IMG/VR virus record: IMGVR_UViG_3300027736_000041
Coordinates: 8,075-72,074 of that record
From: a virus
Strand: one strand, 5' to 3'
Length of the DNA: 64,000 bases
The notes under the pieces: model-generated
What the model was told of the DNA's origin: nothing
The model's input: the letters and a program-made list of their open reading frames with translations, nothing else
The model's database searches: none
Position numbers and translations under genes: made by a program
In this document: in pieces, positions 1,257-29,111 of the stretch
How positions within the stretch are numbered: the first letter of the stretch is position 1
Layout: each line of letters opens with the position of its first letter

Positions 1257-1270
1257 TGCACACAAGTCTT

Positions 1271-1356: not shown

Positions 1357-1376
1357 CCGTGGGAGGCAATCTGTTG

Positions 1377-1405: not shown

Positions 1406-1410
1406 TAGGA

Positions 1411-1502: not shown

Positions 1503-1517
1503 CTGGAGAAAATAGTC

Positions 1518-3509: not shown

Positions 3510-3518
3510 TCGTAAGGC

Positions 3519-3548
3519 TTGACAATATCGTTCCAATAGGTATATGAT
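3519..3548 (+). promoter_or_regulatory. sigma70-type promoter
   Basis: TTGACA (3519-3524), 18 bp, TATGAT (3543-3548). Confidence 0.55.
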
Positions 3549-3590
3549 TATATCTGTGTAGCGATACAGGTCGAAAGCATCCGCTTTAAA

Positions 3591-3655
3591 GGGCCGCCAT
3601 CGCTTTCTTTGACATGATAAAAATGTCAAGGGAAGAGTTGGCGGTCTTTTTGTTT
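3591..3655 (+). terminator. long hairpin intrinsic terminator
   Basis: GGGCCGCCA/TGGCGGTCT outer stem, TTGACAT/ATGTCAA inner stem, followed by TTTTGTTT. Confidence 0.6.
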
Positions 3656-3669
3656 GTATGATAAGAGTT

Positions 3670-12708: not shown

Positions 12709-14472
12709 ATGCCGGTAACAAGTTTTACGGCTACCAATCGGTTCGATCTTATTGGTAGCCAAGTAGTCACCGGCGGTCTTGCCGTAGGAACCTCTTCGGA
12801 AGTCACCTACGGATTGACTGTTTATACTAATCCCAAGGATAGTTTGTCCGCTGCTTCATTAACTGTTGCTGCATCAACAATCTATGTGGCAGCAATCAAT
12901 GTTCCTGCATCAACATCGTCCATCACTACGGCGCTACCCAGCCTGACCGTCTCGGCAATGCATGCCAACAGTTTCAAACCGACAAGCATCAGCGCGTTGG
13001 CTTCGGGAATGACGGTTACTCATGCGGCTACTCAGCATATCGGTGGTGTACCGACACGAACAGGCACACTGGCAAATCTTTCACTGACCAATGCCTATGG
13101 AGTGTTCGTAGACACGTCCGCAACCGATTCCACGAATGCCTACGGTGTATATGTCAATGCGCCAACTGGCGCAACAAATAATTATGCATTGTATGTCGGT
13201 TCAGGAAGTTCTTCGCTTGGAAACATCACGGGAGGTTCGTGGCTTGCGTCTGCAGTCGGTGTGAACTATGGAGGTACAGGACAGACCGCAACGCCAAGCA
13301 ACGGCCAGTTGCTGATTGGTACGGGATCAGGGTTCTCGCTAGCGACACTGACTGCGGGAACCAATGTCACCATCACGAATACCTCAGGAAGCATCACGAT
13401 CAACGCATCCGGCACTGGCGGAGGTGGAAGTTCAGGCACCACCACCAATGCATTGACTATAGGAACAGGGCTGTCGGGAACAAGTTTCAATGGCTCTTCA
13501 GCAGTAACCATCGCCTTGGCAAGCACTGCGGTCACTGCAGGTTCGTATACATCCGCAAATATCACCGTTGATGCTCAAGGAAGACTTACTGCTGCATCAA
13601 ACGGAAGTGGTGGAGGGGGTGAAGGGGGTGGAGGAGCATCCCTTTCCGTCGCCAATACATGGACAGCAACGCAAACGCTTTCCAACAAGGCTGTCATCAG
13701 TGATTCAGCGTCTTCTCCTGCGCCATTCTGGGGCAATGCTCTTACCAGTGGACTGGCACTGACAAGCGGTGATACCTCGACAAGTGTCTGGACGGTTGAT
13801 CCTGAGTCGGGGATTGTGCTAGGTATTTTTACTTCTTCCGCCGATTCCATTGGAATGCCAACAACAGACGGCATGGCAATTGCTGCGCCGTCCTATGACT
13901 ACAGCCCCGTTGCAACGGTGGATAGCACGTACAACGGAGCGTTTGAAGTTTCTTTGGGATTGCGACTGAAGGCATCTGCTGCATCAACCACGTTTGTCGA
14001 ACTCCGCGCTCCCACTGGCTCGTCATCCAGTGCGTCCTATGTATTGCCCAACAATCTTCCCGCCAAAGATGGATACATTCTCAATGCAACAACGCAGGGG
14101 CAGATGGCGTGGCAATACCAGAACGCGATTGAGCCGATCATCGCTGATGATATCTCTCCTTATTTCAATGGCTCTTCCGCCGTTTTTCCATTGACCAATA
14201 ATCTTGTTAAAATTTCCAACATTATTGACTCAAAAGATGCTGAAGTTATTGTCAATGGAAGAAGACTCGTGCCGTATGTACAGGAATTACGGTATCCTTG
14301 GATTGTAGAATATGATGCATATCGAGGGTTTCGTGTGAGGGATGGAAAATTGATTCTTTTTAATGCGCCAAAATCTGGAGAGCAAGCAAGCGTGATGATC
14401 AAGACAATCAGTCAAAAAGTGGCGACAAGAAAATATCCATTCTCTGCCTCGACGATTGCGCTGGGAGACTGA
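12709..14472 (+). CDS. fibre protein
   Basis: YGGTG, NGQLLIG and GSYTSANITVDAQGRLT fibre motifs; distinct C-terminal domain ending YPFSASTIALGD. Confidence 0.7.
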   Translation: MPVTSFTATNRFDLIGSQVVTGGLAVGTSSEVTYGLTVYTNPKDSLSAASLTVAASTIYVAAINVPASTSSITTALPSLTVSAMHANSFKPTSISALASGMTVTHAATQHIGGVPTRTGTLANLSLTNAYGVFVDTSATDSTNAYGVYVNAPTGATNNYALYVGSGSSSLGNITGGSWLASAVGVNYGGTGQTATPSNGQLLIGTGSGFSLATLTAGTNVTITNTSGSITINASGTGGGGSSGTTTNALTIGTGLSGTSFNGSSAVTIALASTAVTAGSYTSANITVDAQGRLTAASNGSGGGGEGGGGASLSVANTWTATQTLSNKAVISDSASSPAPFWGNALTSGLALTSGDTSTSVWTVDPESGIVLGIFTSSADSIGMPTTDGMAIAAPSYDYSPVATVDSTYNGAFEVSLGLRLKASAASTTFVELRAPTGSSSSASYVLPNNLPAKDGYILNATTQGQMAWQYQNAIEPIIADDISPYFNGSSAVFPLTNNLVKISNIIDSKDAEVIVNGRRLVPYVQELRYPWIVEYDAYRGFRVRDGKLILFNAPKSGEQASVMIKTISQKVATRKYPFSASTIALGD

Positions 14473-14473
14473 C

Positions 14474-17400
14474 ATGCCAACGAGAGAGGGTATCCAGCAT
14501 TTTGTCGATACATCCGAGCCAAATGGTGTCCAACCCGGTGATGAGTGGTGGAACATTGGTACGGGAAGATATTACAAGCGTGTGGTATTCAGCAATGGCG
14601 GTGTAGGCTGGACGGAGATTGCACAGCCTTCCTTGATGCTTGGTGCTGCGAGTACATGGGCATTGACTCAGGCATTCAATGGAGGAATAACAGGAACAAC
14701 AGCGGCGTTCAGTGGAGGAATAACAGGAACAACAGCGGCGTTCAGTGGTAGCGCAGCGTCTGATTTCATGATCATTGGATCTGGAAGAAGTTCTTCTGTT
14801 CAGGCGTCTTTGGATGTAAAGGGACAGGTACGCGCTCCACAATACATTATTGGCAATCCTGTCTCAGGATCGTCAATTACGTATGGGGCTGCAACAAGTA
14901 ATAATCTTCTTCCTCCGCCCATGTTTCAAGGTGGAACTGGAGCATTGACCTCGGTAGGGACGGCAGCAACGGGGTCAAGTCCTTCTGGTGTTGTGATTGA
15001 CCCTACTGGCAGATTTGTTTTTGTGACGAATATATCTAGCATCACGGTGCAAACCTATACCATAAATCAATCCACCGGAGCATTGACCTCAGTAGGGACG
15101 GCAGCAACGGGGTCAAGTCCTAAAAGTGTTGCGGTTGATCCCACTGGCAGGTTTGCTTTTGTGGGAAATTTGAACGGCGCTACGGTGCAAGCCTATACCA
15201 TCAATCAATCTACCGGAGCATTGACCTCAGTAGGTGCGGTAGCAACGGGGACAACTCCTCGGACTGTTGCGGTTGACCCAACTGGCAGATTTGTTTTTGT
15301 TGCGAATTATAGTAGCGATACCGTACAAGCCTTCACCATCAATCAATCTACTGGAGCATTGACCTCGGTAGGCACGGCAGCAACGGGAACAAATCCTTAT
15401 GGTGTTGCGGTTGATCCGACCGGCAGGTTTGCTTTTGTGACGAATTATAGTGTCAATACAGTACAAGCCTATACCATTAATCAATCGACGGGAGCATTGA
15501 CCTCGGTAGGAGCGGTACCAACGGGGGCAGCTCCTCAGGGTGTTGCGGTTGACCCAACTGGCAGATTTGCTTTTGTCGCGAATCTTAGTAGCGCTACCGT
15601 GCAAGCCTATACCATCAATCAATCCACCGGAGCATTGACTTCGGTAGGCACGACAGCAACGGGGACATTTCCCACTGGTGTTGCGGTTGATCCAACTGGC
15701 AGGTTTGCTTTTGTCCCGAATAGTAGTGGCGCTACCGTGCAGACCTATACCATTAATCAATCGACGGGAGCATTGACCTCGGTAGGCACGGCAGCAACGG
15801 GGACAACTCCTCAAGATGTTGCGGTTGACCCGACTGGCAGATTTGCTTTTGTGGTGAATTATAATAGCGACACGGTACAAACCTATCGTATTAATAATTT
15901 TGCGGCTAATAGTGGAACATTTCAGGATCAGTTAATCATTGGCTCTGGAAGAAGTTCGTCTGGTCAAGCAGCACTTGATGTCAGTGGACAACTTCGCGCT
16001 CCACAATACATTATTGGAAATCCTGTCTCAGGATCATCCATTACATACGGGGCTGCAACAAGTAACAATCTTCTTCCTCCGCCAACTTTTCACGGAGGAA
16101 CCGGAGTGTTGACATCTGTAGGGACGGCAGCAACTGGGACAAATCCTAACAGTGTTGCGGTTGATCCGACCGGCAGGTTTGCTTTTGTGGCGAATAATGG
16201 TGGCACTACCGTACAAGCCTATACCATTAACCAATCCACCGGAGCATTGACTTCGGTAGGCACAGCAGCAACGGGAACAAGCCCTTATGGTGTTGCGGTT
16301 GACCCAACTGGCAGATTTGCTTTTGTGACGAATTATGGTAGCGCTACCGTGCAGGCCTATACCATTAACCAATCCACCGGAGCATTGACCTCGGTAGGGA
16401 CGGTAGCAACGGGAACAAGTCCTCAGCTTGTTGCGGTTGACCCAACTGGCAGGTTTGCCTTTGTGACGAATTATAGCGGCTCTACAGTACAAGCCTATAC
16501 CATTAACCAATCCACCGGAGCATTGACTTCGGTAGGCACAGCAGCAACTGGGTCAAATCCTTATGGTGTTGCGGTTGACCCGACTGGCAGATTTGCTTTT
16601 GTGACGAATTATGGTAGCGCTACGGTACAGGCCTATACCATCAATCAATCTACCGGAGCATTGACCTCGGTCGGAGCGGTAGCAGCGGGGAATAGTCCCT
16701 CCCTTGTTGCGGCTGACCCGACTGGAAGATTTGCTTTTGTCGCGAATCAGGGTGTTGCTACTGTACAGACGTATACGATTAATCAATCAACTGGAGCATT
16801 AACCTCGGTTGGGACAGTAGCAGCGGGGACATTTCCTAATGCTGTTGCGGTTGATCCAACTGGCAGATTTGCTTTTGTGACGAATTATGGTAGCGCTACG
16901 GTGCAAACCTATACCATTAACCAATTGACCGGAGCATTGACCTCGATAGGAACGGTAGCAACGGGAACAAGTCCTTTTGGTGTTGTGGTTGATCCAACTG
17001 GCAGGTTTGCTTTTGTGACGAATTATAGTAGCAATACAGCACAGGCCTATCGTATTAATAATTTTACGGCCAATAGTGGAACATTCCAAGATGGTTTAAC
17101 TATTGGAACAGGAAACATTGTTTCTACTCTCGCCCCAAGTGCAGTGTATGTGAGTGGACAACTCCGCGCTCCACAATACATCATTGGAAACCCAGTTTCA
17201 GGATCGTCTATTACCTATGGAGCAGTAACGGCAAACAATCTTCTTCCTCCGCCCATGTTTCAAGGTGGAACTGGAGCATTGACCTCGGTAGGGACGGCAG
17301 CAACGGGGTCAAGTCCTAAAAGTGTTGCGGTTGACCCGACTGGAAGATTTGCTTTTGTGACAAATCTTAGTACCCCTACAGTACAAGCCTATACCATTAA

Positions 17401-19771
17401 TCAATCAACCGGAGCATTGACCTCAGTAGGTGCGGTAGCAACGGGGTCAAGTCCGCAAAGTGTTGCGGTTGACCCAACTGGCAGGTTTGCTTTTGTGACA
17501 AATTATTCTAGCGCTACGGTGCAAACCTATACCATTAACCAATTGACCGGAGCATTGACCTCGGTAGGAACGGCAGCAACGGGGACAAATCCGCAAAGTG
17601 TTGCGGTTGATCCAACTGGCAGATTTGTTTTTGTGGCGAATTACAATAGCATCACGGTACAGGCATATACCATCGATCAATCTACCGGAGCATTGACCTC
17701 GGTAGGAACGGTAGTAACGGGGAACAATCCTAATATTGTTGCGGTTGACCCAACTGGCAGGTTTGTTTTTGTCTCGGATTATTATGACAACAAGGTATAT
17801 GCCTGTACCATTAATCAATCAACCGGAGCATTGACCTCAGTAGGTGGGTTAGCAACGGGGTCACAGCCTCAGGGTGTTGCGGTTGACCGAACTGGCAGGT
17901 TTGTTTTTGTGGCGAATTATGGTAGCGCTACGGTACAGGCCTATACCATTAATCAATCCACCGGTGCATTGACTTCGGTAGGAGCGGTAGCAACAGGGAC
18001 AACTCCTTATGGTGTTGCGGTTGACCCAACTGGCAGGTTTGCTTTTGTGACGAATTATGGTAGCGCTACGGTGCAAACCTATACCATTAACCAATCAACC
18101 GGAGCATTGACCTCGGTAGGAACGGTAGCAACTGGGACCGCTCCGCAAAATGTTGCGGTTGACCCAACTGGTAGATTTGCTTTTGTGACGAATTATGCTG
18201 GCGATACGGTACAGGCCTATCGTATTAATAATTTTGCCGCAAATAGTGGAACATTTCAGGATCAATTAACTATTGGAACAGGAAACATTGTTTCTACTCT
18301 CGCCCCAAGTGCAGTGTATGTAAGCGGACAACTCCGCGCTCCGCAATACATTATTGGAAATCCTCTGTCAGGATCTTCCATTACATATGGGGCCGTGACG
18401 AGCAATAATCTTCTTCCTCCGCCAACTTTCCACGGAGGGACTGGAGCATTGACCTCGGTAGGAGCGGTAGCAGCGGGAACAAATTCGCGCATGGTTGCGA
18501 TTGATTCGTCCGGACGATTTGCCATCGTTGCGAATTTTGGCTCCGCCACCGTACAGCCTTTCGTGATCAATCAATCGACCGGGGCACTTACCGCGGGGAC
18601 GGCCGTGGCGTTCGGCAGTAGCGCATATAGCGTGGCAATTGATCCGACCGGGCGCTATGCCTACGTCTGCGGGGGCAGCGCCACCTACACCGTCCAGCCA
18701 TACACGATCAACCAGTCCACTGGCGATTTGACAGCGGGGACTGCGGTAACCACTGGAAATACTCCGAATGCCGTTACGGTTGATCCCACCGGACGGTTCG
18801 TCTACGTGACGAATCAGAATGATGCTACGGTTCAATGTTTTTTGATCACTCAAAGCACTGGAGCGTTGACCTCAATGGGAGCGGTAGCAACAGGAACCGG
18901 TTGCTTTGCGGTTGTGGTAGATCCCTCCGGACGGTTTGTCTTTGTCGCGAATCAGGGTCTTGCTACTGTACAGACGTATACGATTAATCAATCAACTGGA
19001 GCATTGACCTCGGTAGGAACGGTAGCAACGGGGACAAATCCTCGCCAACTCGCTGTTGATCCCACTGGCAGGTTTCTTTTTGTGACGAATTATGGTAGCA
19101 GCACGGTGCAGCCCTTCACAATCAACCAGTCAACTGGGACATTGACCGCGGGAACTGCCGTGGCAACCGGGACAACTCCTCATTGTGTTGCGGTAGACCC
19201 GACCGGACGACTTGTCTTCGTTGCAAATAGTGTTGCTGGCACACTTCAGACTTACTCGATCAATCAATCTACCGGAGCATTGACCTCTGTGGGAACCGTG
19301 ACGACAGGAACAACTCCTTGGGGTGTTGCGGTTGATCCAACTGGTCGATTTGTTGTTGTGGGAAACAATGGCGGAGCCACCGTGCAGTCCTTCCGAATTA
19401 ATAATTTTGCGGCAAATAGTGGAACATTTCAAGATCAACTCGGCATTGGGACGACTACTCCAAATTCTACCTTGCACGCATCCGGTTCTTTTAGCGTAGC
19501 AATTCTTTCAATTACTGGCGCAACAACATTGGATGCGACTCATAACGTAGTGTTGTGCGGAGGAACGTCTTCGTATCAAGTTACCTTGCCAACTGCTGTG
19601 GGAATTGCCGGAAGAATGTATCAAATAAAAAAGACAAGCATTTCTGACTATACATTGACCATTGGCACCACTTCGTCACAAACTATTGACGGAAGCACTT
19701 CATTAGGATTTGCAACACAGTATAATAATTTTGTAGTTATTTCTGATGGCGCAAATTGGAGTTTGTTGTAA
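14474..19771 (+). CDS. giant adhesin/receptor-binding protein with four 7-bladed beta-propellers (YVTN/lactonase-like blades)
   Basis: 28 copies of a ~46-aa blade GALTSVGxxATGxxPxxVAVDPTGRFxFVxNxxxxTVQxYTINQST in groups of seven; C-terminal VTLP...ISDGANW domain; ATG 14474 with RBS GGGAG. Confidence 0.8.
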   Translation: MPTREGIQHFVDTSEPNGVQPGDEWWNIGTGRYYKRVVFSNGGVGWTEIAQPSLMLGAASTWALTQAFNGGITGTTAAFSGGITGTTAAFSGSAASDFMIIGSGRSSSVQASLDVKGQVRAPQYIIGNPVSGSSITYGAATSNNLLPPPMFQGGTGALTSVGTAATGSSPSGVVIDPTGRFVFVTNISSITVQTYTINQSTGALTSVGTAATGSSPKSVAVDPTGRFAFVGNLNGATVQAYTINQSTGALTSVGAVATGTTPRTVAVDPTGRFVFVANYSSDTVQAFTINQSTGALTSVGTAATGTNPYGVAVDPTGRFAFVTNYSVNTVQAYTINQSTGALTSVGAVPTGAAPQGVAVDPTGRFAFVANLSSATVQAYTINQSTGALTSVGTTATGTFPTGVAVDPTGRFAFVPNSSGATVQTYTINQSTGALTSVGTAATGTTPQDVAVDPTGRFAFVVNYNSDTVQTYRINNFAANSGTFQDQLIIGSGRSSSGQAALDVSGQLRAPQYIIGNPVSGSSITYGAATSNNLLPPPTFHGGTGVLTSVGTAATGTNPNSVAVDPTGRFAFVANNGGTTVQAYTINQSTGALTSVGTAATGTSPYGVAVDPTGRFAFVTNYGSATVQAYTINQSTGALTSVGTVATGTSPQLVAVDPTGRFAFVTNYSGSTVQAYTINQSTGALTSVGTAATGSNPYGVAVDPTGRFAFVTNYGSATVQAYTINQSTGALTSVGAVAAGNSPSLVAADPTGRFAFVANQGVATVQTYTINQSTGALTSVGTVAAGTFPNAVAVDPTGRFAFVTNYGSATVQTYTINQLTGALTSIGTVATGTSPFGVVVDPTGRFAFVTNYSSNTAQAYRINNFTANSGTFQDGLTIGTGNIVSTLAPSAVYVSGQLRAPQYIIGNPVSGSSITYGAVTANNLLPPPMFQGGTGALTSVGTAATGSSPKSVAVDPTGRFAFVTNLSTPTVQAYTINQSTGALTSVGAVATGSSPQSVAVDPTGRFAFVTNYSSATVQTYTINQLTGALTSVGTAATGTNPQSVAVDPTGRFVFVANYNSITVQAYTIDQSTGALTSVGTVVTGNNPNIVAVDPTGRFVFVSDYYDNKVYACTINQSTGALTSVGGLATGSQPQGVAVDRTGRFVFVANYGSATVQAYTINQSTGALTSVGAVATGTTPYGVAVDPTGRFAFVTNYGSATVQTYTINQSTGALTSVGTVATGTAPQNVAVDPTGRFAFVTNYAGDTVQAYRINNFAANSGTFQDQLTIGTGNIVSTLAPSAVYVSGQLRAPQYIIGNPLSGSSITYGAVTSNNLLPPPTFHGGTGALTSVGAVAAGTNSRMVAIDSSGRFAIVANFGSATVQPFVINQSTGALTAGTAVAFGSSAYSVAIDPTGRYAYVCGGSATYTVQPYTINQSTGDLTAGTAVTTGNTPNAVTVDPTGRFVYVTNQNDATVQCFLITQSTGALTSMGAVATGTGCFAVVVDPSGRFVFVANQGLATVQTYTINQSTGALTSVGTVATGTNPRQLAVDPTGRFLFVTNYGSSTVQPFTINQSTGTLTAGTAVATGTTPHCVAVDPTGRLVFVANSVAGTLQTYSINQSTGALTSVGTVTTGTTPWGVAVDPTGRFVVVGNNGGATVQSFRINNFAANSGTFQDQLGIGTTTPNSTLHASGSFSVAILSITGATTLDATHNVVLCGGTSSYQVTLPTAVGIAGRMYQIKKTSISDYTLTIGTTSSQTIDGSTSLGFATQYNNFVVISDGANWSLL
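14675..14748 (+). repeat. 33-bp tandem repeat (about 2.2 copies)
   Basis: Encodes FxGGITGTTAA twice. Confidence 0.85.
14939..19405 (+). repeat. 138-bp blade repeats nested in ~1.17-kb propeller repeats (4 x 7)
   Basis: Propeller ends RINNF at 15893, 17057, 18227 and 19400 (periods 1164, 1170, 1173 bp). Confidence 0.95.
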
Positions 19772-20280
19772 TGGCATTTAGAGCAGATGTCCCGGTGCTG
19801 CTGGCGTCAACCACGTTGGGGAGTGCGTCGGCGAGTGTGACGTTTTCTGGTTTTAGTTCCGCCTATAAGCACCTTATGATTCTTTTCATGGCACGAAGTT
19901 CGGCAACTGCTGGCGCTTACGATACGCTGGCATATCAATTCAACGGCGACACTGCTGCGAATTATCGGAGTATCGCGAATACAACGGCTACAACTCACGC
20001 AAGTGTAGCGATTATTCCCAATACAACTACGTTTTTTCCAACTCAACCCGGCATCGGGCGAACGATTATTTTCTACTACAATGACACTTCATCTGGTTGG
20101 CAAAAGCGAACTCTTACCGATACGGACTCAGATATTGGCACAAGTGCAACAAGCCCATTCACGACCGTGTGGGGCGGTACATGGACCACTGTCAATACTG
20201 CCATTACAAGCGTTCTAATGAAAACATCGAACGGCAATTTCGTAGCAGGAAGCCGCTTTGACTTGTACGGAATACCCTAA
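19771..20280 (+). CDS. small fibre-associated beta-sandwich protein (paralog of 28611..29111)
   Basis: TAATG coupling; LxSASASVTFS...FNG...ITSV...G..F.LYG.P shared with the paralog. Confidence 0.75.
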   Translation: MAFRADVPVLLASTTLGSASASVTFSGFSSAYKHLMILFMARSSATAGAYDTLAYQFNGDTAANYRSIANTTATTHASVAIIPNTTTFFPTQPGIGRTIIFYYNDTSSGWQKRTLTDTDSDIGTSATSPFTTVWGGTWTTVNTAITSVLMKTSNGNFVAGSRFDLYGIP

Positions 20281-20372
20281 TGAATACTGAACCACCCATC
20301 GCCATAGAGTTGAACTGCGAAACCGGCATCGAAACAAGTATAAAAAGGAATGATAAATGGCCAAGCATGTAA
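20280..20372 (+). pseudogene. truncated remnant of a fibre-chaperone-like gene (paralog of 29122..29586)
   Basis: MNTEPPIAIELNCETGIE resembles KPIKIEVNCETGEE, then similarity is lost and it stops after 30 aa. Confidence 0.6.
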
Positions 20373-23300
20373 TCCTTGAATCGTATTCGTTCACTCCAGC
20401 CACAAGAACGATTGTGGTTTATGGAAAGTGGATTCGGCGCGAGCAATTGTTGCTTATCACGAACGTGACAAAAAACACGGTCATTTACAATTTCAGCGAT
20501 CCGTCGCTTGGGGTATCGGCATATACGACTGGAATAAGTCAGCAAAGTCCGACAACTCAGCAGAATGAGATCACGACCGTCGTTGTGTCCTATGACACGA
20601 CCAGTCATTCCGCTACAGACAAGTTAGCCATTCTTGTTGAAGAGACGTATGAATCTATTCTTCCCGCCGAAACAATGATGGACCCTGTGGGAAAAATGCG
20701 GACATCCATTCCGCAAAGTCTTATTGATACTGACTTTGAATACGGACAGCAACCGACAAAGTGGGAACATCTGGCACTAGTGAATAACAGGCCGACATGT
20801 TTTTATGATCCATCGAGCAGTGCCGCACAGTGGACTTACAACGTTGGTGTTGCTTCGCAAAGCACAACCACCGTTACTGGAACGGGCACTACATGGCATG
20901 GAGGTTTGATAGGAAGCAGGTTCACGTATCTTGATGGTACTGATGTGGGAACCATCACCGCGGTGGCAAGTGCCACATCATTGACGGTCTCCACATCTGC
21001 CACCGTTCCCTCACAGAGTTACACCATTTTTGGATTTCCGTACAAGGGCGGCAGCACAAGTCCTTCACCAGTTGCTGATCCTTCGATCATGTTCAAGGAT
21101 ACAACAACCGACGCAACTGGATACACAATTTCATTACTGCTGAATACAGGCGCATTTGGATTGTATGTTGGTCAGCCAATCTATGTCAGCAATTCCCTTG
21201 ATCAAGCAAACGTTGACGGATGGTGGGTTGTGGATGCCATTGTGCCTCAGGCGTCCTATGCGGCCGCTGGTGCTAACGTCAATGATATCGTCAGGTTCAA
21301 AACCATCAATATTACATCAGCCACAAACTTATTTGATCCTACAAAGACTATTGTGTATCCGGGATATTGGTACACGGGAGCTAATATTCCTGTGACATCA
21401 ATCGCGTGTGCGTCAAATATCATCACTGTTACCACTCCGTCGGCTCACGGACTGTCCGTTGGAGAGCAGGTACACATCAACAATACGGCTACGGCTGCAT
21501 GCAATGGATCGTGGGCAATCACGACAACGCCGACAAATACCACGTTTACGATTACCACTCCTGCAGGTGGTTCTCCGGGAACACTTACTCTTAACGGTGG
21601 AGTAAATGGAACATTATTCCCCAGAGCGCAGGGATATGTGATTCATCGTGCGTTTGACGGTGGTGTGCAATTTTCCAATCAGACTCCATATCACGGATTG
21701 CAAATGATCCGGCAAACCCGTCGGTATTTCCGCTATCAAAGTGGAAAGGCCATTCAATTTTCTACTGGCTCAATTCTCAAGCCAGCTTTGACGGTAGATA
21801 CAATTACCTCTTCGGGAACTACTGCGACAATCACCACGAAATATCCGCACGGCATTACCTACTCTTCGGTAGGAACCAATGCCCAGATCAAAGTCATTGG
21901 AGCCTCTGACGTTGCTGGCGTTGCATTTCCGGGAACCGCTTCACAGTCCGGAACAGTGATCACTGGCGTCAATACCTATTTCACTTCTGCGCTCACAGGA
22001 CAGACATTTGTATTTTCAGATGGAACTAACGCAGGCGTGATCACTTACGTCAGTGCAACTTCGTTAAATGTCACTGTTTCCCAAACTGTATCATCTCAAA
22101 AATATTATGTTCAATCAACTGCCTACAATGGAATTTTTACCATTGCCAGTGTTCCATCACTATATACAATCACCTACACGATGTCATCCACTCCAACAAA
22201 CAGCACGACGACAGCGTTCCCTATTGATGGATACCCTTCTGGAATTCAAGTATCCCCTTGGGCATGGTATGGAGGCAAAAACCGTGTTGGAATGTTTGAT
22301 CAACAAAACGGGTTCTTTTTTGAATATGACGGACAAAATGTTTATGCCGTTCGACGAAGCAGCACTATGCAAATACCGGGAACATTTACGGTTACGAATG
22401 GTTCCCAATCAGTTGTGGCTTCGTCAGCAGTTGGATCAATCTCCAGTCACTTGAAACCCGGAGATACCGTAGCGATCCGTGGCGGATCATATACCGTAGG
22501 CTCGATTACTTCTGCTACACAAATGTACATTTACCCAGAGTACCGTGGTGCTACTCCAGTGAACGCATCATATGTGGCACAAGCACAATCCAACGTTATT
22601 GTCAGCAAGACCGTTGACATCCGTATTCCTCAAAGCGCTTGGAATATTGACAAGTGTGACGGAACAGGACATTCCGGATTCAACGTTGACCTGACAAAAA
22701 TGCAAATGTTTTATATTGATTATGCGTGGTATGGGGCAGGAGCAATCCGCTGGGGGTTCAAAAATAACCGCGGAGAAGTTATTTATTGTCATAGAATGAA
22801 CAACAACAACATCAATACCGAAGCATACATGAGATCCGGCAACATGTGTGCGAGGTATGAGACCAACACATTGGCTCCGACCACATGGGTGACCAACTGG
22901 AATTTAATTGCGGCAAGCACCGGTACGATTTACGTTGCTGACGCCACGCAGTTTCCTCCGGCCGGAACACTTGTGGTCACAGCCGCTGGTGGACAAACGG
23001 GACAGTTGATCGAGTACATGAACTACAGTTCCAGAACAGACTCGACATTCACGATCAGTGCCCGTGGACAGACTGGAGGCGGTGCGGCCGCAACGTTTTC
23101 TCCGACAACAACTGCGCCGGTGTCTGTTTCGTTATATCTGCCTTCTGTCGCCTCGACACTATCTCACTGGGGATCATCGATCATCATGGACGGCAGATAC
23201 GACGACGACAAGTCGCTTATTTTCTCGGCCGGAATGAATGTCCCGACAGCGGCGTTGACGGCACGGCAGCAGTATCCATTGATTTCCATCCGCTCTGCGC

Positions 23301-23977
23301 CAAGTGTTGATAGTGGATTGACGGGATCAATGGGCGCAAGGGAAATTGTCAATAGAATGCAGTTGGTTTTGCGCCAGATGGATGCATTCACTTCGGGAAA
23401 CAGTTTCGCGGTTGACTTGTGGCTGAACGCATCCATTGCGAGTGGCTACTACTACAATGCAACTGGGACTACCGCAAACAGCACGACACTCAATTTGACC
23501 GGAACTCTTGTCGGCACCGCCCCTGTTGCTGGTTCGTATGTGTGGGGACCGGGATTGCTTCCGGGATCGTTCTTCACGGTGTATTCCAATACAACAACAA
23601 ATACGCTTAGCATTGCTGCTACAGCGACAAAAGGCGGAACGTACTGGATCGGCAACAACCAGTTTCAGGCGGTTGGTGGTTCCTCGCTTTCTCAGCGAGT
23701 TCTTCATCCACTTACCGACCGGCTTATTCCGGGCACTGGAGAGAAAATTTTCACGTTCTTCACTAATTCTTCTGGCGTAACTCAGCAAGATTTGTCGCAG
23801 GTTCGTGACATGGCTACTTCCATCGTAGGTGGTGCCTCCAATGCATACCTTACGCCGGGATATGCCAACAAATATCCGGATGGCCCAGACATCATCACCA
23901 TGGTTGCAACACCAATCGGTACGGTGTCCAGTGCCACGATCATTGCGCGTCTGAGTTGGTCAGAAGCACAGGCGTAA
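20357..23977 (+). CDS. large virion structural/fibre protein
   Basis: 1206 aa, T/S-rich; T.T...HG repeats; SLIDTDFEYG.QPTKWE and RQTRRYFRYQSGK blocks; two internal ~60-aa repeats (G.ASQS.T..TG...DGT..G.IT). Confidence 0.7.
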   Translation: MAKHVILESYSFTPATRTIVVYGKWIRREQLLLITNVTKNTVIYNFSDPSLGVSAYTTGISQQSPTTQQNEITTVVVSYDTTSHSATDKLAILVEETYESILPAETMMDPVGKMRTSIPQSLIDTDFEYGQQPTKWEHLALVNNRPTCFYDPSSSAAQWTYNVGVASQSTTTVTGTGTTWHGGLIGSRFTYLDGTDVGTITAVASATSLTVSTSATVPSQSYTIFGFPYKGGSTSPSPVADPSIMFKDTTTDATGYTISLLLNTGAFGLYVGQPIYVSNSLDQANVDGWWVVDAIVPQASYAAAGANVNDIVRFKTINITSATNLFDPTKTIVYPGYWYTGANIPVTSIACASNIITVTTPSAHGLSVGEQVHINNTATAACNGSWAITTTPTNTTFTITTPAGGSPGTLTLNGGVNGTLFPRAQGYVIHRAFDGGVQFSNQTPYHGLQMIRQTRRYFRYQSGKAIQFSTGSILKPALTVDTITSSGTTATITTKYPHGITYSSVGTNAQIKVIGASDVAGVAFPGTASQSGTVITGVNTYFTSALTGQTFVFSDGTNAGVITYVSATSLNVTVSQTVSSQKYYVQSTAYNGIFTIASVPSLYTITYTMSSTPTNSTTTAFPIDGYPSGIQVSPWAWYGGKNRVGMFDQQNGFFFEYDGQNVYAVRRSSTMQIPGTFTVTNGSQSVVASSAVGSISSHLKPGDTVAIRGGSYTVGSITSATQMYIYPEYRGATPVNASYVAQAQSNVIVSKTVDIRIPQSAWNIDKCDGTGHSGFNVDLTKMQMFYIDYAWYGAGAIRWGFKNNRGEVIYCHRMNNNNINTEAYMRSGNMCARYETNTLAPTTWVTNWNLIAASTGTIYVADATQFPPAGTLVVTAAGGQTGQLIEYMNYSSRTDSTFTISARGQTGGGAAATFSPTTTAPVSVSLYLPSVASTLSHWGSSIIMDGRYDDDKSLIFSAGMNVPTAALTARQQYPLISIRSAPSVDSGLTGSMGAREIVNRMQLVLRQMDAFTSGNSFAVDLWLNASIASGYYYNATGTTANSTTLNLTGTLVGTAPVAGSYVWGPGLLPGSFFTVYSNTTTNTLSIAATATKGGTYWIGNNQFQAVGGSSLSQRVLHPLTDRLIPGTGEKIFTFFTNSSGVTQQDLSQVRDMATSIVGGASNAYLTPGYANKYPDGPDIITMVATPIGTVSSATIIARLSWSEAQA

Positions 23978-24043
23978 AATCATCAAACCAATTTTTATGA
24001 TAAACAGAAGTGTATAATGGGTACATAAGCACAGGAGACGAAA

Positions 24044-24400
24044 ATGCCGCAAAGTTATAAAAGATTGAACTCGATCATTTCCAATGCATCGCTTTCAACG
24101 CCACTGAATTTATATACCTGCACCACAACTTCTGCCGTGGTTAGCACCATCTCTATTTGCAATACGTCAGCATCTGTCGTGACGTATCGCATTTGCGTGA
24201 CAACGGCTGCCGCTTCGGCTACCGGCACAACGTTTCCTGCTGACATCAATGGATACATCGTCTATGACGGAACGATACTAGGCAACGACACATCGTTCGT
24301 CACGGTGGGATTGACGCTTGATGCTACCAACAAATATCTTCTTGCTTCTTCTAGCGCCGCTTCCTTGGCGATCAGCGCATTTGGAGTGGAGATTTCCTAA
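24044..24400 (+). CDS. small adaptor-like protein, family copy 1
   Basis: YKRL...VVSTISICN...YRI...FGVEIS; RBS AGGAG. Confidence 0.75.
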   Translation: MPQSYKRLNSIISNASLSTPLNLYTCTTTSAVVSTISICNTSASVVTYRICVTTAAASATGTTFPADINGYIVYDGTILGNDTSFVTVGLTLDATNKYLLASSSAASLAISAFGVEIS

Positions 24401-27400
24401 TGGCAATCAAGAGCCTCAAGGGATTGGGATCGAAGCCTAGTGCCGTGGCAGACACTGGCACAGCCCTGACCGTTTCAACGCCGCTGACCGCATCCTCAGG
24501 AGCAACCATCACTGGAAGTGCCTTGACTGCTTCAAACGGATTCATAGTCGCTGGCGGGGCAAACATCGCGGGAGGATTGACCGTTACGAGTGGGTCGCTG
24601 TCTGCTCCCGGAGGATTGTCTACGACCGCATTGTCTACGCCGACGCTATATCCATCTGGATTAACAGGTGCCGTTGCAGCATCGAGGTGGGTGGGAGGAA
24701 CCGTTTCAGGTGCCCCTACCAGTGGCACATTTGCCGTTGGAGACTATGTAGTAAGTCAAAATGGCTCATTCTATGTCTGTCAGGTAGCAGGCACTCCGGG
24801 AACATGGCAGCAAGCGGGAGGATCAACGTTTGCGGGACCACTCGTGGTTGGAACTGGAAGAACACAATCCATACAAACAGCAGCAGATATTCAAGGACAA
24901 TTGAGAGCCTCACAATACATCATTGGGAACCCAGTTTCAGGATCGTCCATTACATATGGGGCGGTCACGAGTAATAATCTTCTTCCTCCGCCGACTTTCC
25001 ATGGAGGAACCGGAGTGTTGACCTCTGTAGGGACGGCAGCAACGGGGAATGGTGCTAACAGTGTTGCGACTGATCCCACTGGCAGGTTTGCTTTTGTCGC
25101 GAATAGTAATGGCAATACCGTTCAAGCCTATACCGTCAATCAATCTACCGGAGCATTGACCTCAGTAGGTGCGGTAGCAACGGGTACATATCCTCAGGGT
25201 AATGCGGTGGACCCCACCGGCAGATTCCTTTTTGTAACAAATTTTAACGGCAATACAGTACAGACCTATACCATCAATCAATCGACCGGAGCATTGACCT
25301 CAGTAGGCACGGCAGCAACGGGCACCAATCCTTATAATGTTGCAGTTGATCCAACTGGCAGGTTTGTATTTGTCCCGAATTTTAATGGCGCCACCGTGCA
25401 AGCCTATACCATCAATCAATCCACCGGAGCATTGACCTCGGTGGGGACAGCAGCAACGGGAACACAGCCTAGAGGTGTCGCGGTTGATCCCACCAGCAGG
25501 TTTCTTTTTGTGACAAATGCTTTTAATGGAGCCGGAGGGAACACAGTACAGACCTATACCATAAATCAATCCACCGGAGCATTGACCTCGGTGGGGACAA
25601 CAGCAACAGGGGCACTTCCTGTTAATGTTGCGGTTGATCCCACTGGCAGATTTGTTTTTGTGACAAATTATAGTGGAAGTACCGTGCAAGCCTATACCAT
25701 TGATCAATCTACCGGAATATTGACTTCCGTAGGTGCTTTATCAACGGGAGCAAATCCCACGAGTGTTGCGGTTGATCCAACCGGTAGGTTTGCTTTTGTT
25801 GTGAATAGTACTGACGGTACCGGTATGATTTATACTATTAATCAATTCACTGGAGCATTAATTTTTATAGGTTCGGTTACAACAGGATCAAGCCCTAATT
25901 ATGTTGCGGTTGATCCAACTGGTAGATTTGTTTTTGTGTCAAATTATAGTAGCACCACCGTGCAGGCCTTCCGAATTAATAATTTCGCCGCAAATAGTGG
26001 AACATTTCAGGATCAATTGACCATTGGAACAGGAAACATTGTTTCTACTCTCGCCCCAAGTGCAGTGTATGTAAGCGGACAACTCCGCGCTCCACAGCAC
26101 ATCATCGGCAATCCTGTCTCAGGATCGTCCATTACGTATGGGGCGGCCACGAGTAATAATCTTCTTCCTCCGCCGACTTTTCACGGTGGAACCGGAGTGT
26201 TGACTTCGGTAGGTGCGGTCGCAACGGCGTATGGTTTGGGTGTTGCGATTGACCCAACTGGCAGATTTGCTTTTGTGACAAATACTAGTGGCGATACAGT
26301 ACAGGCATATACCATTAATCAATCTACCGGAGCATTGACCTCGGTAGGCACGGCAGCAACGGGGACAAATCCTAGAGGAGTTGCCGCTGACCCCACTGGC
26401 AGGTTTGCTTTTGTTACGAGTTATAGTAACACGGTGCAGGCCTATACCATCAATCAATCTACCGGAGCATTGACCTCGGTCGGAGCGGTAGCAACGGGGT
26501 CTGGTCCTCAAGGAGTTGCGATTGACTCCACTGGCAGGTTTGCTTTTGTGACGAGTCAATCTGGCGATACAGTACAGGCATATACCATTAATCAATCTAC
26601 CGGAGCATTAACCTCGGTAGGCACAGCAGCAACGGGATCAATGCCTTATGGTGTTGCGGTTGACCCGACTGGCAGGTTTGCTTTTGTGACGAATAATAAT
26701 GCCTCTACGGTACAAGCCTATGCCATTAATCAATCCACCGGAGCATTGACATCGGTAGGAGCGGTAGCAACGGGGACAAATCCCTTGGGTGTTGCGGTTG
26801 ACCCAACTGGCAGGTTTGCTTTTGTGGCAAATTTTGGTGTCTCTACGGTACAAGCCTATACCATTAATCAATCGACTGGAGCATTAACCTCGGTCGGAAC
26901 GGCAGCAACGGGAACATATCCTCGGGGTGTTGCGGTTGACCCAACTGGCAGATTTGTTTTTGTGACAAATAATAGTAGCGCTACGGTACAAACCTATACC
27001 ATTAATCAATCCACCGGAGCATTGACCTCGGTCGGAGCGGTAGCAACGGGATCAGGCCCTGAAATAATTGCGGTTGATCCGACTGGGAGATTTGTTTTTC
27101 TCACGAATTATGGTAGCACCACGGTACAAGCCTATCGTATCAATAATTTTGCGGCAAATAGTGGAACATTTCAGGATCAGTTAATCATTGGATCTGGAAG
27201 AAGTTCGTCTGTTCAAGCATCGCTAGATGTTAGCGGACAACTACGCGCTCCACAATACATCATCGGGAACCCAGTTTCAGGATCTTCTATTACATATGGG
27301 GCGTCCACGAGCAACAATCTTCTTCCTCCGCCAACTTTCCATGGAGGAACAGGGTCATTGACCTCGGTAGGCACGGCAGCAACGGGGACAAATCCTCAAT

Positions 27401-28611
27401 TTGTTGCGGTTGACCCAACTGGCAGGTTTGCTTTTGTGACGAATAATGGTACCACCACCATACAGTCCTATACCATCGATCAAACCACCGGAGCATTGAC
27501 CTCGGTAGGCACGACAGCAACGGGGTCAAGTCCTTATGCTGTTGCGGTTGATCCAACTGGCAGGTTTGCTTTTGTGGTGAATAATGGTACCACCACCATA
27601 CAGGCATATACCATCAATCAATCCACCGGAGCATTGACCTCAGTAGGTGCGGTAGCAACGGGGACAAACCCTCAATTTGTTGCGGTTGACCCTACCGGAA
27701 GATTTGCTTTTGTGACGAATTTTAATGCCACCACGGTACAAGCCTATACCATCAATCAATCTACCGGAGCATTGATCTCGGTAGGTACGGCAGCAACCGG
27801 CAGTGGACCCACTGGTGTTGCGGTTGACCCAACTGGCAGATTTGTTTTTGTGACGAATTATACTAGCACTACGGTACAAGCCTATACCATTAATCAATCC
27901 ACCGGAGCATTGACCTCGGTAGGGGCGGTAGCAACGGGAACAACTCCTTATGCTGTTGCGGTTGATCCAACTGGCAGATTTGTTGTTGTTGCGAATTATG
28001 GTAGCACTACGGTGCAAGCCTATACCATTAATCAATCTACTGGAGCATTGACCTCGGTAGGCACGGCAGCAACGGGGAACAATCCTCAGGGTGTTGCGGT
28101 TGATCCAACTGGCAGATTTGTTTTTGTGACGAATAGTGCTAGCACCACCGTTCAAGCCTATACCATCAATCAATCTACCGGAGCATTGACCTCGGTAGGC
28201 ACGGCAGCAACTGGGTCAAATCCGTCTGCTGTTGCGGTTGATCCTACTGGCAAGTTTGTTTTTGTGTCAAATTATGGCAGCACCACCGTGCAGGCCTTCC
28301 GAATTAATAATTTTGCCGCGACCGGAACACTCTTCTCTCAGGTCACCTCGATCACTGCCGCAACGACACTCGACTCCACACACGGAGTTGTCCTTTGCGG
28401 AGGAACCACATCCTATCAGGTCACCCTTCCCACCGCCGTAGGAATTACTGGGCGGCAATATCAAATAAAGAAGAACAGCACTTCTGCCTATACCTTGACT
28501 ATCGGCACCACTTCCTCACAGACTATTGATGGAGTGACCTCACTCGTATTGACAACGCAGTATAATAATATTGTAGTTATTTCTGATGGCGCAAATTGGA
28601 GTATTTTGTAA
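24400..28611 (+). CDS. adhesin/receptor-binding protein with three 7-bladed beta-propellers (paralog of 14474..19771)
   Basis: 21 blade repeats, same linkers and same C-terminal ISDGANW domain; different N-terminus beginning MAIKSL. Confidence 0.8.
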   Translation: MAIKSLKGLGSKPSAVADTGTALTVSTPLTASSGATITGSALTASNGFIVAGGANIAGGLTVTSGSLSAPGGLSTTALSTPTLYPSGLTGAVAASRWVGGTVSGAPTSGTFAVGDYVVSQNGSFYVCQVAGTPGTWQQAGGSTFAGPLVVGTGRTQSIQTAADIQGQLRASQYIIGNPVSGSSITYGAVTSNNLLPPPTFHGGTGVLTSVGTAATGNGANSVATDPTGRFAFVANSNGNTVQAYTVNQSTGALTSVGAVATGTYPQGNAVDPTGRFLFVTNFNGNTVQTYTINQSTGALTSVGTAATGTNPYNVAVDPTGRFVFVPNFNGATVQAYTINQSTGALTSVGTAATGTQPRGVAVDPTSRFLFVTNAFNGAGGNTVQTYTINQSTGALTSVGTTATGALPVNVAVDPTGRFVFVTNYSGSTVQAYTIDQSTGILTSVGALSTGANPTSVAVDPTGRFAFVVNSTDGTGMIYTINQFTGALIFIGSVTTGSSPNYVAVDPTGRFVFVSNYSSTTVQAFRINNFAANSGTFQDQLTIGTGNIVSTLAPSAVYVSGQLRAPQHIIGNPVSGSSITYGAATSNNLLPPPTFHGGTGVLTSVGAVATAYGLGVAIDPTGRFAFVTNTSGDTVQAYTINQSTGALTSVGTAATGTNPRGVAADPTGRFAFVTSYSNTVQAYTINQSTGALTSVGAVATGSGPQGVAIDSTGRFAFVTSQSGDTVQAYTINQSTGALTSVGTAATGSMPYGVAVDPTGRFAFVTNNNASTVQAYAINQSTGALTSVGAVATGTNPLGVAVDPTGRFAFVANFGVSTVQAYTINQSTGALTSVGTAATGTYPRGVAVDPTGRFVFVTNNSSATVQTYTINQSTGALTSVGAVATGSGPEIIAVDPTGRFVFLTNYGSTTVQAYRINNFAANSGTFQDQLIIGSGRSSSVQASLDVSGQLRAPQYIIGNPVSGSSITYGASTSNNLLPPPTFHGGTGSLTSVGTAATGTNPQFVAVDPTGRFAFVTNNGTTTIQSYTIDQTTGALTSVGTTATGSSPYAVAVDPTGRFAFVVNNGTTTIQAYTINQSTGALTSVGAVATGTNPQFVAVDPTGRFAFVTNFNATTVQAYTINQSTGALISVGTAATGSGPTGVAVDPTGRFVFVTNYTSTTVQAYTINQSTGALTSVGAVATGTTPYAVAVDPTGRFVVVANYGSTTVQAYTINQSTGALTSVGTAATGNNPQGVAVDPTGRFVFVTNSASTTVQAYTINQSTGALTSVGTAATGSNPSAVAVDPTGKFVFVSNYGSTTVQAFRINNFAATGTLFSQVTSITAATTLDSTHGVVLCGGTTSYQVTLPTAVGITGRQYQIKKNSTSAYTLTIGTTSSQTIDGVTSLVLTTQYNNIVVISDGANWSIL
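25012..28314 (+). repeat. 138-bp blade repeats (3 x 7)
   Basis: Same DNA consensus as 14939-19405. Confidence 0.95.
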
Positions 28612-29111
28612 TGAGTTTTTTGACGGATAGGCCATTTTTGCTCGGAACATCACTTCTGGCATCTGCTTCAGCCTCGGTGACTTTTTCTAATATTCCCGCC
28701 AGTATTAACAATTTGGTTTGTCACTACACAGCTAAATCCACTGGAGGTCAGCCAACATACGATTTGTTGGGAATACGATTTAACGGATCATCGGCGGTTG
28801 CATACTATAGTACACAAGATGCCGGATTAAATGCAGAAGGAAGAATCGCAATTATTCCTCCAAGTGGAATTTTTCCCACAGGTCAGCAAGGTGCTGGAAC
28901 ATTTCATATTTATGATATTCAGAATACTGCTAGAGCCAAAGTTGCTTCAGCATTATATATTAATCAATATAGCACAACAGTGAGAAATTTAAACGCAGCG
29001 TTTTACGGTGCTGTGTGGGAAAATACTGCAGCAATTACTTCTGTTACTTTTCTTGGAGTTATAGCAACTTTAGAAGCCGGAACTATATTTAAATTATATG
29101 GATATCCATAA
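28611..29111 (+). CDS. small fibre-associated protein (paralog of 19771..20280)
   Basis: TAATG coupling; shared motifs with the paralog. Confidence 0.75.
   Translation: MSFLTDRPFLLGTSLLASASASVTFSNIPASINNLVCHYTAKSTGGQPTYDLLGIRFNGSSAVAYYSTQDAGLNAEGRIAIIPPSGIFPTGQQGAGTFHIYDIQNTARAKVASALYINQYSTTVRNLNAAFYGAVWENTAAITSVTFLGVIATLEAGTIFKLYGYP

Follow-up and report, generated by a model that had tools for sequence, protein, structure and literature searches.

Two paralogous genes with arrays of propeller blades

The stretch of DNA analysed here (the window) comprises 64,000 nucleotides, positions 8,075 to 72,074, of the IMG/VR virus record IMGVR_UViG_3300027736_000041, a linear, metagenome-assembled contig of 72 kb with a CheckV completeness of 41%. 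All long open reading frames (ORFs) of the window lie on the + strand. Among them are two paralogous genes, here denoted A and B, whose products contain tandem seven-bladed beta-propellers with a conserved blade framework and two variable loops. The features discussed below are collected in Table 1.

Anchoring the blades on an invariant D-P-T-G-R turn yields a total of 49, of which gene A has 28 and gene B has 21; they fall into seven runs of seven, at a spacing of 46 amino acids (aa) within a run and with 112-114 aa separating successive runs. These counts bear out an earlier note on this DNA that had described two paralogous genes with four and three propellers of seven blades each; the coordinates it gave hold as well, with the first blade of A1 beginning at 14939 and the last blade of B3 ending at 28317. 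Each propeller and the linker of ~66 aa that precedes it make up one cassette. The blade length is exactly 46 aa in 45 of the 49 blades, the other four having small indels in or beside the loops, and Tandem Repeats Finder (TRF) detects a period of 138 in all seven arrays, with 73-83% matches. The ATG at 14474 as the start of gene A is backed by the orthologue P0005 and by an Atlas record that begins at residue 7.

The entropy of the blade columns is 1.7-3.2 bits at G-[TS]-x-P-x-x (columns 13, 14, 16 and 17) and 2.1-2.6 bits at N-x-x-x-x-T (columns 32-35), and is at most 0.9 bits in most framework columns. The loop pairs of the 45 regular blades are all distinct (43 distinct first loops and 37 distinct second loops), in agreement with the claim that the loops differ in almost every blade, and the loops quoted in its support (SSPKS, TTPRT, TNPYG, TFPNA and SGPEI) are all present. 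Six residues, namely, S (21%), G (14%), T (14%), N (13%), Y (9%) and A (9%), together account for 80% of the loop positions, and charged residues for ~4%. The framework is more diverged than the earlier note had it when calling it near-identical at the DNA level: the pairwise DNA identity of the blades is 0.53-0.92 (median 0.77) and that of the framework codons alone 0.57-0.93 (median 0.82), and the proportion of synonymous differences (pS) in the framework is 0.42, that is, the synonymous sites are well diverged.

Fold of the cassettes and position of the variable residues

The Lactonase family PF10282, with a curated cut-off of 21.7 bits, matches the products of both gene A (E 2e-183, 609.8 bits, 16 stretches) and gene B (E 2.1e-146, 488 bits, 12 stretches). 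An AlphaFold2 (AF2) model of the A2 cassette (15923-17095), built from an alignment of 16 cassettes, has a mean pLDDT of 87.4 and a pTM of 0.83; the propeller blocks reach a pLDDT of 93-98 (about 97), and their 28 blade strands form seven four-stranded blades arranged in a ring. The best solved relative is 1l0q_A, the YVTN propeller of an archaeal S-layer protein, by both Foldseek (E 6.4e-22, 30% identity) and profile comparison (E 2.3e-28). The top Foldseek matches are 1l0q, 5c2v_B, 6nau and 1ri6, the S-layer propeller being followed by hydrazine synthase beta and Pgl-type lactonases. Of the predicted structures from viruses, the closest are those of two uncharacterised proteins from uncultured Caudovirales (28-33% identity). 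The modelled fold is a lactonase/YVTN seven-bladed beta-propeller, as the earlier note had proposed, and the ring closes velcro-fashion, with the first D strand joining the last blade.

In the A2 model, DSSP places strands D, A, B and C in blade columns 3-10, 15-20, 26-31 and 36-42, respectively. The eight variable positions of each blade (columns 13, 14, 16, 17 and 32-35) fall in the D-A connection and the start of strand A, two in each, and in the B-C loop, which holds the other four; the invariant D-P-T-G-R and N-Q-S-T-G-A turns are the A-B and C-D connections. In a propeller, the D-A and B-C connections share one face, and the A-B and C-D connections the other. From this topology, we infer that all eight variable positions lie on one face, as the earlier note had supposed, and because they recur on the same face in every blade, each propeller would present a surface of its own with ~56 variable residues.

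Selection on loops and framework

Pairwise Nei-Gojobori counts over the 45 blades give pS 0.39 and pN (the proportion of nonsynonymous differences) 0.51 for the loops, and pS 0.42 and pN 0.11 for the framework. In a parsimony count on a maximum-likelihood tree of the same blades, the loops have S 42.8 and N 228.2, with an omega of 1.45 (p 0.013), and the framework has an omega of 0.20. A second extraction of 43 blades, with trees built from all sites or from framework sites only, yields a loop omega of 1.63-1.70 (p about 0.0009, the lowest being 0.0008). Loop omega is 1.37-1.51 (p 0.02-0.04) for 27 blades of the related contigs L010a/b and 1.37-1.52 (p 0.05-0.14) for 17 blades of another relative, L009. 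Given such short repeats, weak trees and the likelihood of recombination, these p-values are to be taken as nominal. Pooled loop omega is thus above 1, rather than at or below it, in the window (1.45-1.70) and in the two other arrays (1.37-1.52), in line with the diversified loops envisaged in the earlier note. The blade framework is held by purifying selection (omega about 0.2). Loop pN is near 0.5 even in blade pairs with a framework pS of ~0.2; picking pairs by the lowest framework pS biases pS downwards, and the yardstick for these pairs is the loops' own pS of 0.25-0.33.

Closer comparisons come from sequencing runs X3 and X7 (one from a bioreactor, one from lake water), which contain related strains ~96-97% identical to the window in the gene for the 1206-aa protein that lies between genes A and B; for the X3 strain, the identity is ~96% (114 differences in 3007 bases). 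Propeller A4 is collinear and 97.6% identical in the related strain. The 21 differences in the collinear A4 piece of X3 comprise 14 synonymous and 7 nonsynonymous ones, with 3 of the latter in the ~48 loop codons among 288 codons, for a loop omega of 0.4-0.5 by hand estimate. A short X3 contig over blade A3b6 has three differences, all nonsynonymous and located in loop columns 13, 14 and 17, and the linker before A2 has 7 synonymous differences and 1 nonsynonymous difference in X3. The skewed composition of the loops, together with their conservation, for the most part, in the X3 comparison, suggests that the loops, which differ between paralogues, are not free to drift; this fits specific functions, although the data are thin.

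Terminal domains, downstream genes and relatives

The C-terminal 125 aa of gene A (residues 1647-1771), in three copies, are predicted to form a complex with a score of 0.96, compared with 0.01 for the best of three controls; the runs of the predicted trimer share at least 97% of their contacts, with a partner pLDDT of at least 95. In the calibration of this score, done with two copies, not three, 21 of 30 homomers of known structure attained the mark, as did 0 of 23 proteins known as single chains. The AF2 monomer model of the C-terminal domain, from an alignment of 2 sequences, has a pLDDT of 47.5. A phmmer search of this domain against PDB sequences gave nothing better than E 0.2, and a Pfam hmmscan of the end domains found nothing. 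An Atlas look-alike, the C-terminal family of phage tail fibres PF26209 (58% of cluster members; score 0.91, 151 shared features), serves as a lead only. By tblastn, residues 1629-1771 match a 'T7 tail fiber protein' of a Thermocrinis virus (34% identity, E 2e-9). Matches to tail-fibre families are weak at both ends: the N-terminal part of gene B matches the tail-fibre phrog_23059 (E 8.5e-6), and the gene A tip matches a tail-fibre phrog as well as phrog_37034, a family of unknown function. A further weak PHROG match of the ends is phrog_15695 (E 0.0073).

Each of the two genes is followed by a small gene. The two small genes are paralogues (33% identity, E 1e-22; ~172 aa) whose products have no Pfam or PHROG family; for the one downstream of gene A, the Atlas contains only clusters of viral hypothetical proteins, with the record beginning at residue 6. 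The likely ATG codons of both overlap the last base of the preceding stop codon, possibly allowing translational coupling. The small gene seems to go with the tip domain because orthologous fibres that have a different C-terminus (in L009 and L012) come without such a gene, and the small proteins are candidates for a fibre assembly chaperone or a tip partner.

Relatives that share the linker+propeller cassette contain 1, 2, 3 or 4 cassettes, and their C-termini include Peptidase_S74 (PF13884) or other fibre types. The N-terminal domain of gene A is 82% identical in L015 and 67% identical in L016, and is also found in L009 and L012/P0005. Among the orthologues with this N-terminus, L009 has 4 cassettes, L012/P0005 has 3, and L015 has 3 blades and an LVIVD-type domain; the L016 orthologue is propeller-like by eye but has no Pfam match, and its repeats are left unnamed. 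Within the N-terminal part of gene A, TRF detects a 33-bp tandem repeat at 14671-14748. The 11-aa unit that it encodes is present in two copies in the window, one in L009 (7523-13276) and three in L015 (555-3683), and so is polymorphic among related phages.

Two relatives depart from the regular layout. In L015 (a 4-kb metagenome contig, 555-3683), three YVTN-type blades are located between the linker and the exit motif and are followed by the domain with the LVIVD hit; this run is either an assembly collapse or a fragment that forms a propeller only by oligomerising in a trimeric fibre. L010 (1520-12355, identical to L011) encodes 41 blades in three adjacent genes. One of these genes specifies a 1772-aa protein with 14 consecutive blades, without a linker between the two propellers, and two further runs of 7; another encodes a 408-aa single-propeller protein. 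The blades of both these proteins belong to a second type, still more uniform than that of the window. The third gene is a fibre gene with one cassette of the blade type found in the window.

The linker+propeller cassette is rare. Of 1.84 billion cluster representatives, a linker profile retrieved just 20 at E<=0.001, 11 of which reach E<=1e-10; a scan of 185,579 prokaryote species, each represented by one genome, gave no true match. The sole tblastn-passing stretch among 15 pattern matches in the prokaryote genomes was rejected as a 15-residue chance match to a signal-peptide-like region of a protein without blades. A tblastn search of gene A in phage records gave distant matches only (22-25% identity), mostly unannotated or labelled 6-phosphogluconolactonase. 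Multi-propeller lactonase-family proteins with Ig-like domains are common in bacteria, with 1235 at E<=0.001 among 8000 scored candidates.

Possible exchange of blades and mode of diversification

The propellers lack a positional register: for blades 2-6, framework DNA identity between propellers is 0.817 for blades in matching positions and 0.818 for those in other positions, and register shifts between propeller pairs all score alike. Where two blades have the same framework residue, the codon is also identical in a fraction of 0.66 within the window and of 0.65-0.72 in comparison with type-1 blades of three other contigs, against 0.49 with the second blade type (L010a/b), 0.43 with L012 and a codon-usage baseline of 0.33-0.42. 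Given the lack of register and the equal codon identity within and between genomes, blades of one type appear to be about equally related, whatever their position or phage. One contig carries both blade types, in different genes. The contigs of the related-strain runs X3 and X7 show many non-collinear joints inside six of the seven arrays, with 1-35 letters replaced among those listed, and those of X1 (the likely source run) and X2 (another study) show almost none. The comparison with these two runs also shows a deletion of 15 bases at 24615, a site within the N-terminal domain encoded by gene B. Among relatives, the number of cassettes varies from 1 to 4, and the number of blades per propeller is 7 (or 14) wherever countable, the run of 3 in L015 being a possible collapse.

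These patterns are compatible with two histories: blades and cassettes may have been exchanged, or a burst of amplification may have preceded the transfer of cassettes. Reshuffling by blade-level recombination, proposed in the earlier note, is suggested by the lack of register, the codon identity and the non-collinear strain contigs, whereas the conversion-tract test is weak, its maximum run of 52 being reached by 7 of 300 permutations. The mean-run statistic of the same test, which exceeds all 300 permutations, was set aside because it is confounded by the clustering of variable sites. A stronger version of the exchange scenario posits a shared pool of blades that are exchanged in register within and between propellers, fibre genes and co-infecting phages, with selection keeping the eight top-face positions different; we regard it as a tentative idea that is unlikely to be correct.

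The earlier note also likened the arrays to variable lymphocyte receptors (VLRs). This analogy holds only for the scaffold-plus-variable-loop architecture, as no mechanism of programmed diversification was found. Genes A and B are complete germline ORFs, and the sequence gives no hint that cassettes are joined somatically or by a programmed process. A search for reverse transcriptase (RT) with PF00078 gave 0 matches in the 72-kb record, which is ~41% complete, and matches in 3 of 14 control genomes. In view of this lack of an RT in the incomplete record, we rejected the possibility that the arrays are targets of a diversity-generating retroelement (DGR).

Probable binding modules of virion fibres and the alternatives

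Our preferred interpretation, to which we assign a probability of roughly 0.6, is that genes A and B encode two paralogous, probably homotrimeric fibres of the virion that carry non-enzymatic binding propellers and were diversified by duplication and by exchange of blades and cassettes. Each fibre would consist of an N-terminal attachment domain followed by 4 or 3 cassettes and the shared C-terminal tip. The propellers would be ligand-binding modules involved in adhesion or receptor recognition, with host surface glycans or proteins as possible ligands, such that the fibres would hold seven distinct specificities beside the tip. If the fibres are trimers, each surface would occur three times per fibre, and seven surfaces per virion presumes that both proteins are present in the virion. 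As for the origin of the arrays, the blade and the cassette would have been amplified, exchanged within and between related phages, and selected for different loops. The propellers most likely serve in binding; a role as enzymes is unlikely, and one that is purely structural is possible.

Several observations weigh against this interpretation. The common face of the variable residues is deduced from topology, and linker residues 1-37 of the A2 cassette model have a pLDDT <50, which limits what the model says about the attachment of the propellers to the fibre. No alignment entered the trimer prediction, which may owe its score to a resemblance to fibre tips of known structure. The position of the genes, between the head genes and the sheath gene, fits a tail, head or neck fibre alike and does not tell these apart. 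Loop omega exceeds 1 only modestly, and it derives from a home-made parsimony count on repeats of 138 bp that have probably recombined and whose tree is uncertain; among single columns, only column 17 reaches nominal p<0.05 (p 0.0185), and none does after correction. An omega near 1 and a restricted alphabet could reflect relaxed, turn-compatible loops. The conservation of the loops in X3 rests on one 866-nt contig from the most divergent propeller, and the weakness of the tract test counts here as well.

The alternative that survives best is that the propellers are structural beads, that is, spacers that stiffen, lengthen or shield the fibre, with near-neutral loops and recognition by the tip alone. 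The loop omega close to 1 (1.4-1.7) with one individually significant column would suit this view, as would the narrow alphabet of small polar residues fit for tight turns, the separate tip with its own downstream partner gene, and the variation in cassette number from 1 to 4 that is expected of a length module. Neutral loops, however, would not yield the X3 pattern, in which 3 nonsynonymous differences in ~48 loop codons stand against 14 synonymous ones in 288 codons. Nor do they readily account for a pooled loop omega >1 in three arrays, or for 45 of 45 regular blades that differ in their loops on a framework with an omega of 0.2. Propellers generally bind ligands on the face that holds the D-A and B-C loops, and the variability is located wholly on that face. 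We consider the structural view unlikely, without being negligible.

Still less probable, in our judgement, is an enzymatic role, in which lactonase-, esterase- or depolymerase-like propellers would break down a host surface polymer or signal in the manner of tailspike depolymerases and endosialidase propellers. The name of the family and the presence of Pgl-type lactonases among the best structural matches favour an enzyme, as does the score of gene A with the NCBIfam 6-phosphogluconolactonase model PRK11028 (449 bits, against a cut-off of 370). This score, however, is a sum over 15 stretches in four propellers, and gene B, at 354 bits, is below the cut-off; hence we set aside identity with the 6-phosphogluconolactonase equivalog (NF008258). 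Moreover, the face on which the active sites of the family are located is the one that differs from blade to blade and from propeller to propeller, which speaks against a single conserved site. The near-invariant residues beside that face are only G12, P15 and N31, repeated in each blade and apparently structural, and the closest solved relative is a non-enzymatic S-layer domain. On the side of an enzyme, the part of a survey of fibres of extracellular contractile injection systems (eCIS) used here counts lactonase domains among enzymatic fibre domains (PMC12923769).

Integrity of the arrays

The source of the arrays is a metagenome-assembled linear contig with 522 repeated 31-mers in the region. 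The longest exact repeat in 14456-28611, however, is 81 bp, and no 99-mer is repeated. The reading frames are open throughout 5.3 kb and 4.2 kb. Contigs made by a second assembler from run X1 cover 30 of 30 bins, with 169 of 200 contigs at >=99% and one joint listed; those from run X2 cover 28 of 30 bins, with 48 of 56 contigs at >=99%, no joint listed, and pieces inside A4 and B1 that match without any difference. As evidence on absence, strain or habitat, neither the uncovered bins of runs X2, X3 and X7 nor 20 further runs, many of them with small shares, were counted. Runs of 7 or 14 blades recur in independent contigs, and the contigs L010 and L011 show no difference over a stretch of 20.6 kb that holds 41 blades. 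No single contig piece spans a whole array, and the order of the blades rests on the assembly of the record. That the array, or the number and order of its blades, is an artefact of short-read metagenome assembly is therefore hardly credible: the completeness of 41%, the repeated 31-mers, the lack of a spanning piece and the possibly collapsed 3-blade run of L015 are outweighed by the short exact repeats, the open frames with exactly 7 blades in all seven propellers, the cross-study contigs and the recurrent runs in other contigs.

Genomic setting

The virus is an uncultured freshwater tailed phage with a contractile tail. Its phage origin, assumed in the earlier note, is borne out by the IMG/VR source and by head, sheath, tape-measure and baseplate genes on one strand (Table 1). 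The lineage is uncultured because the major head protein is ~25% identical at most to those of isolated phages in the collection. The propeller genes are embedded in the block of virion structural genes, with the protease, head and fibre-like genes upstream, and the sheath, tube-like, tape-measure and baseplate genes downstream (the tube-like and baseplate proteins were also identified by PHROG matches). From the head genes to the sheath gene, the order is gene A, a small gene, the gene for the 1206-aa protein, a 118-aa ORF, gene B and a small gene.

Table 1. Features of the window and their coordinates
Feature	Position	Strand	Remarks
Head maturation protease	3658-4680	+	PHROG match
Major head protein	6448-8049	+	PHROG match
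Decoration- or fibre-like protein	10336-12699	+	PHROG match
Fibre-like protein	12709-14472	+	PHROG match
Gene A, putative fibre protein: N-terminal domain, 4 linker+propeller cassettes (A1-A4), C-terminal tip	14474-19771	+	1765 aa from ATG; ORF open from TTG at 14456
Gene A, N-terminal domain	14474-14758	+	Common to orthologous fibres with other middle sections
Propeller A1, 7 blades of 46 aa	14939-15904	+	Preceding linker 14759-14938
Propeller A2, 7 blades	16103-17068	+	Preceding linker 15905-16102
Propeller A3, 7 blades	17273-18238	+	Preceding linker 17069-17272, second linker type
Propeller A4, 7 blades	18443-19411	+	Most divergent, framework DNA identity to other propellers ~0.72
Gene A, C-terminal tip domain	19412-19768	+	76% identical to gene B tip
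Small gene after gene A	19756-20280	+	174 aa from TTG; probable ATG at 19771, overlaps gene A stop codon
Conserved virion structural protein, 1206 aa	20357-23977	+	Between genes A and B; phrog_5838 E 2.8e-240
Gene B, paralogous putative fibre protein: other N-terminal domain, 3 cassettes (B1-B3), same tip type	24400-28611	+	1403 aa; PF10282
Propeller B1, 7 blades	25012-25989	+	One blade with a 4-aa insertion in the B-C loop
Propeller B2, 7 blades	26191-27153	+	Two blades with 1-aa indels in loops
Propeller B3, 7 blades	27352-28317	+	Blade anchors
Gene B, C-terminal tip domain	28318-28608	+	phrog_37034 E 9.5e-7
Small gene after gene B	28596-29111	+	171 aa from TTG; ATG at 28611 overlaps gene B stop codon
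Tail sheath	30466-32187	+	PHROG match
Tape-measure-sized protein with SLT and M23 domains	34006-39954	+	PHROG/Pfam

The 1206-aa protein is 42-44% identical to virion structural or 'fiber' proteins of T4-like cyanophages (such as S-PM2, Syn1 and S-RIM44). The head protein, unlike the 1206-aa protein, is unrelated to that of the T4-like cyanophages. The gene for the 1206-aa protein adjoins the propeller fibre gene, directly 3' of it, in L009, L012, L016 and L017, and because this adjacency recurs, the two appear to form a conserved pair.

Upstream of the head module, a tRNA-Leu gene (anticodon TAA) is located at 1271-1358; the mechanically called ORF 1332-2606 has its GTG start at 1332, inside this tRNA gene, such that its 5' end is overlapped. 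After the baseplate genes, 49570-56133 encodes a 2187-aa virion structural protein (phrog_6002), and 56499-59093 an 864-aa protein with a glycine-rich domain (PF21722, E 1.1e-41; phrog_2295). These two proteins, which are likely to be further fibre or baseplate-peripheral components, point to a second set of large distal proteins beside the propeller fibres.

Comparison with known systems

The design of the arrays is unusual but not unprecedented, and a search of the literature (main texts, without supplements) found no paper describing this phage propeller-fibre architecture. The surface-layer YVTN propeller of Methanosarcina (1l0q, PF10282) likewise has seven four-stranded blades of ~40-46 aa with the same motif, and is extracellular and non-enzymatic. 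However, that cellular S-layer protein has just one propeller, with a PKD domain after it, whereas the phage arrays have 4 and 3 tandem propellers with dedicated linkers, and their blades are far more alike, with the variation confined to two loops.

In how they would work, the closest analogues appear to be the WD40 repeats of fungal NOD-like receptors (NLRs) and other recently amplified propellers. The part of the work on the HNWD (het-d/het-e) NLR genes of Podospora anserina drawn on here reports that the WD40 repeats evolve in concert and that each repeat has four surface residues under positive selection (PMC1805685). As portrayed there, these propellers of highly similar repeats, with a few diversified positions on the interaction face and repeats apparently exchanged within and between loci, are read as a recognition repertoire. 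They differ from the phage arrays in belonging to the WD40 family, in being intracellular fungal immune receptors, in their highly variable repeat number and in the demonstration of positive selection with codon models; the phage blades are fixed at 7 per propeller, are ~80% identical at the DNA level, and have selection and exchange only suggested. Highly repetitive propellers occur in all major lineages, with two lactonase-like families and with viruses among the sources, according to the available part of a study by Pereira and Lupas from 2022 (PMC9218822); the phage arrays are of the same kind, and phage fibre arrays, tandem propellers and loop-restricted variability are not described in that part.

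Other likenesses concern the mounting of propellers on particles. Gp45 of Staphylococcus phage phi11 is, in the portion of its description used here, a receptor-binding protein with a five-bladed propeller platform (PMC4901313). It resembles the propellers discussed here as a host-recognition module of a phage tail device, but it is one propeller of an unrelated family in a siphophage baseplate, as opposed to tandem seven-bladed YVTN-type propellers along a fibre. The tail fibres of eCIS carry beta-propeller lectins or lactonase domains (PMC12923769), and umbrella-toxin particles carry several diversified lectins (PMC13274773). Judging from the respective portions of these two papers, both mount propellers for target binding, with several diversified modules per particle as a form of bet-hedging. 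Both, however, are bacterial toxin-delivery particles, and tandem near-identical blades with loop-restricted variation are not described in those portions.

Finally, the DGR target Mtd of Bordetella phage BPP-1 is likewise a fibre protein of a phage in which a hypervariable surface for ligand binding is set on a constant scaffold (PMC7159879). The DGR, as far as the part of that source used here goes, requires an RT and a template repeat and varies one site of C-type-lectin fold within a lineage, whereas the diversity of the phage arrays is spread over 49 germline paralogous blades, with no RT in the 72-kb record.

Implications

The recognition of hosts by phages is commonly credited to a single tip domain or to tailspikes with enzymatic activity. 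Fibres with up to four tandem, differing propellers would be a modular multi-specificity adhesin and would represent a natural case of scaffold-plus-loop diversification in a virus without a DGR. The regular 46-aa blade with its eight tolerant positions is a natural template for engineered binders, and the arrays are a test case for repeat proteins that stay homogeneous while their functional loops diverge. If the tentative shared-pool scenario outlined above is true, recombination, independently of retroelements, would build and reshuffle seven surfaces (times three in a trimer) as host-range bet-hedging, a viral counterpart of the WD40 repertoires of fungal NLRs.

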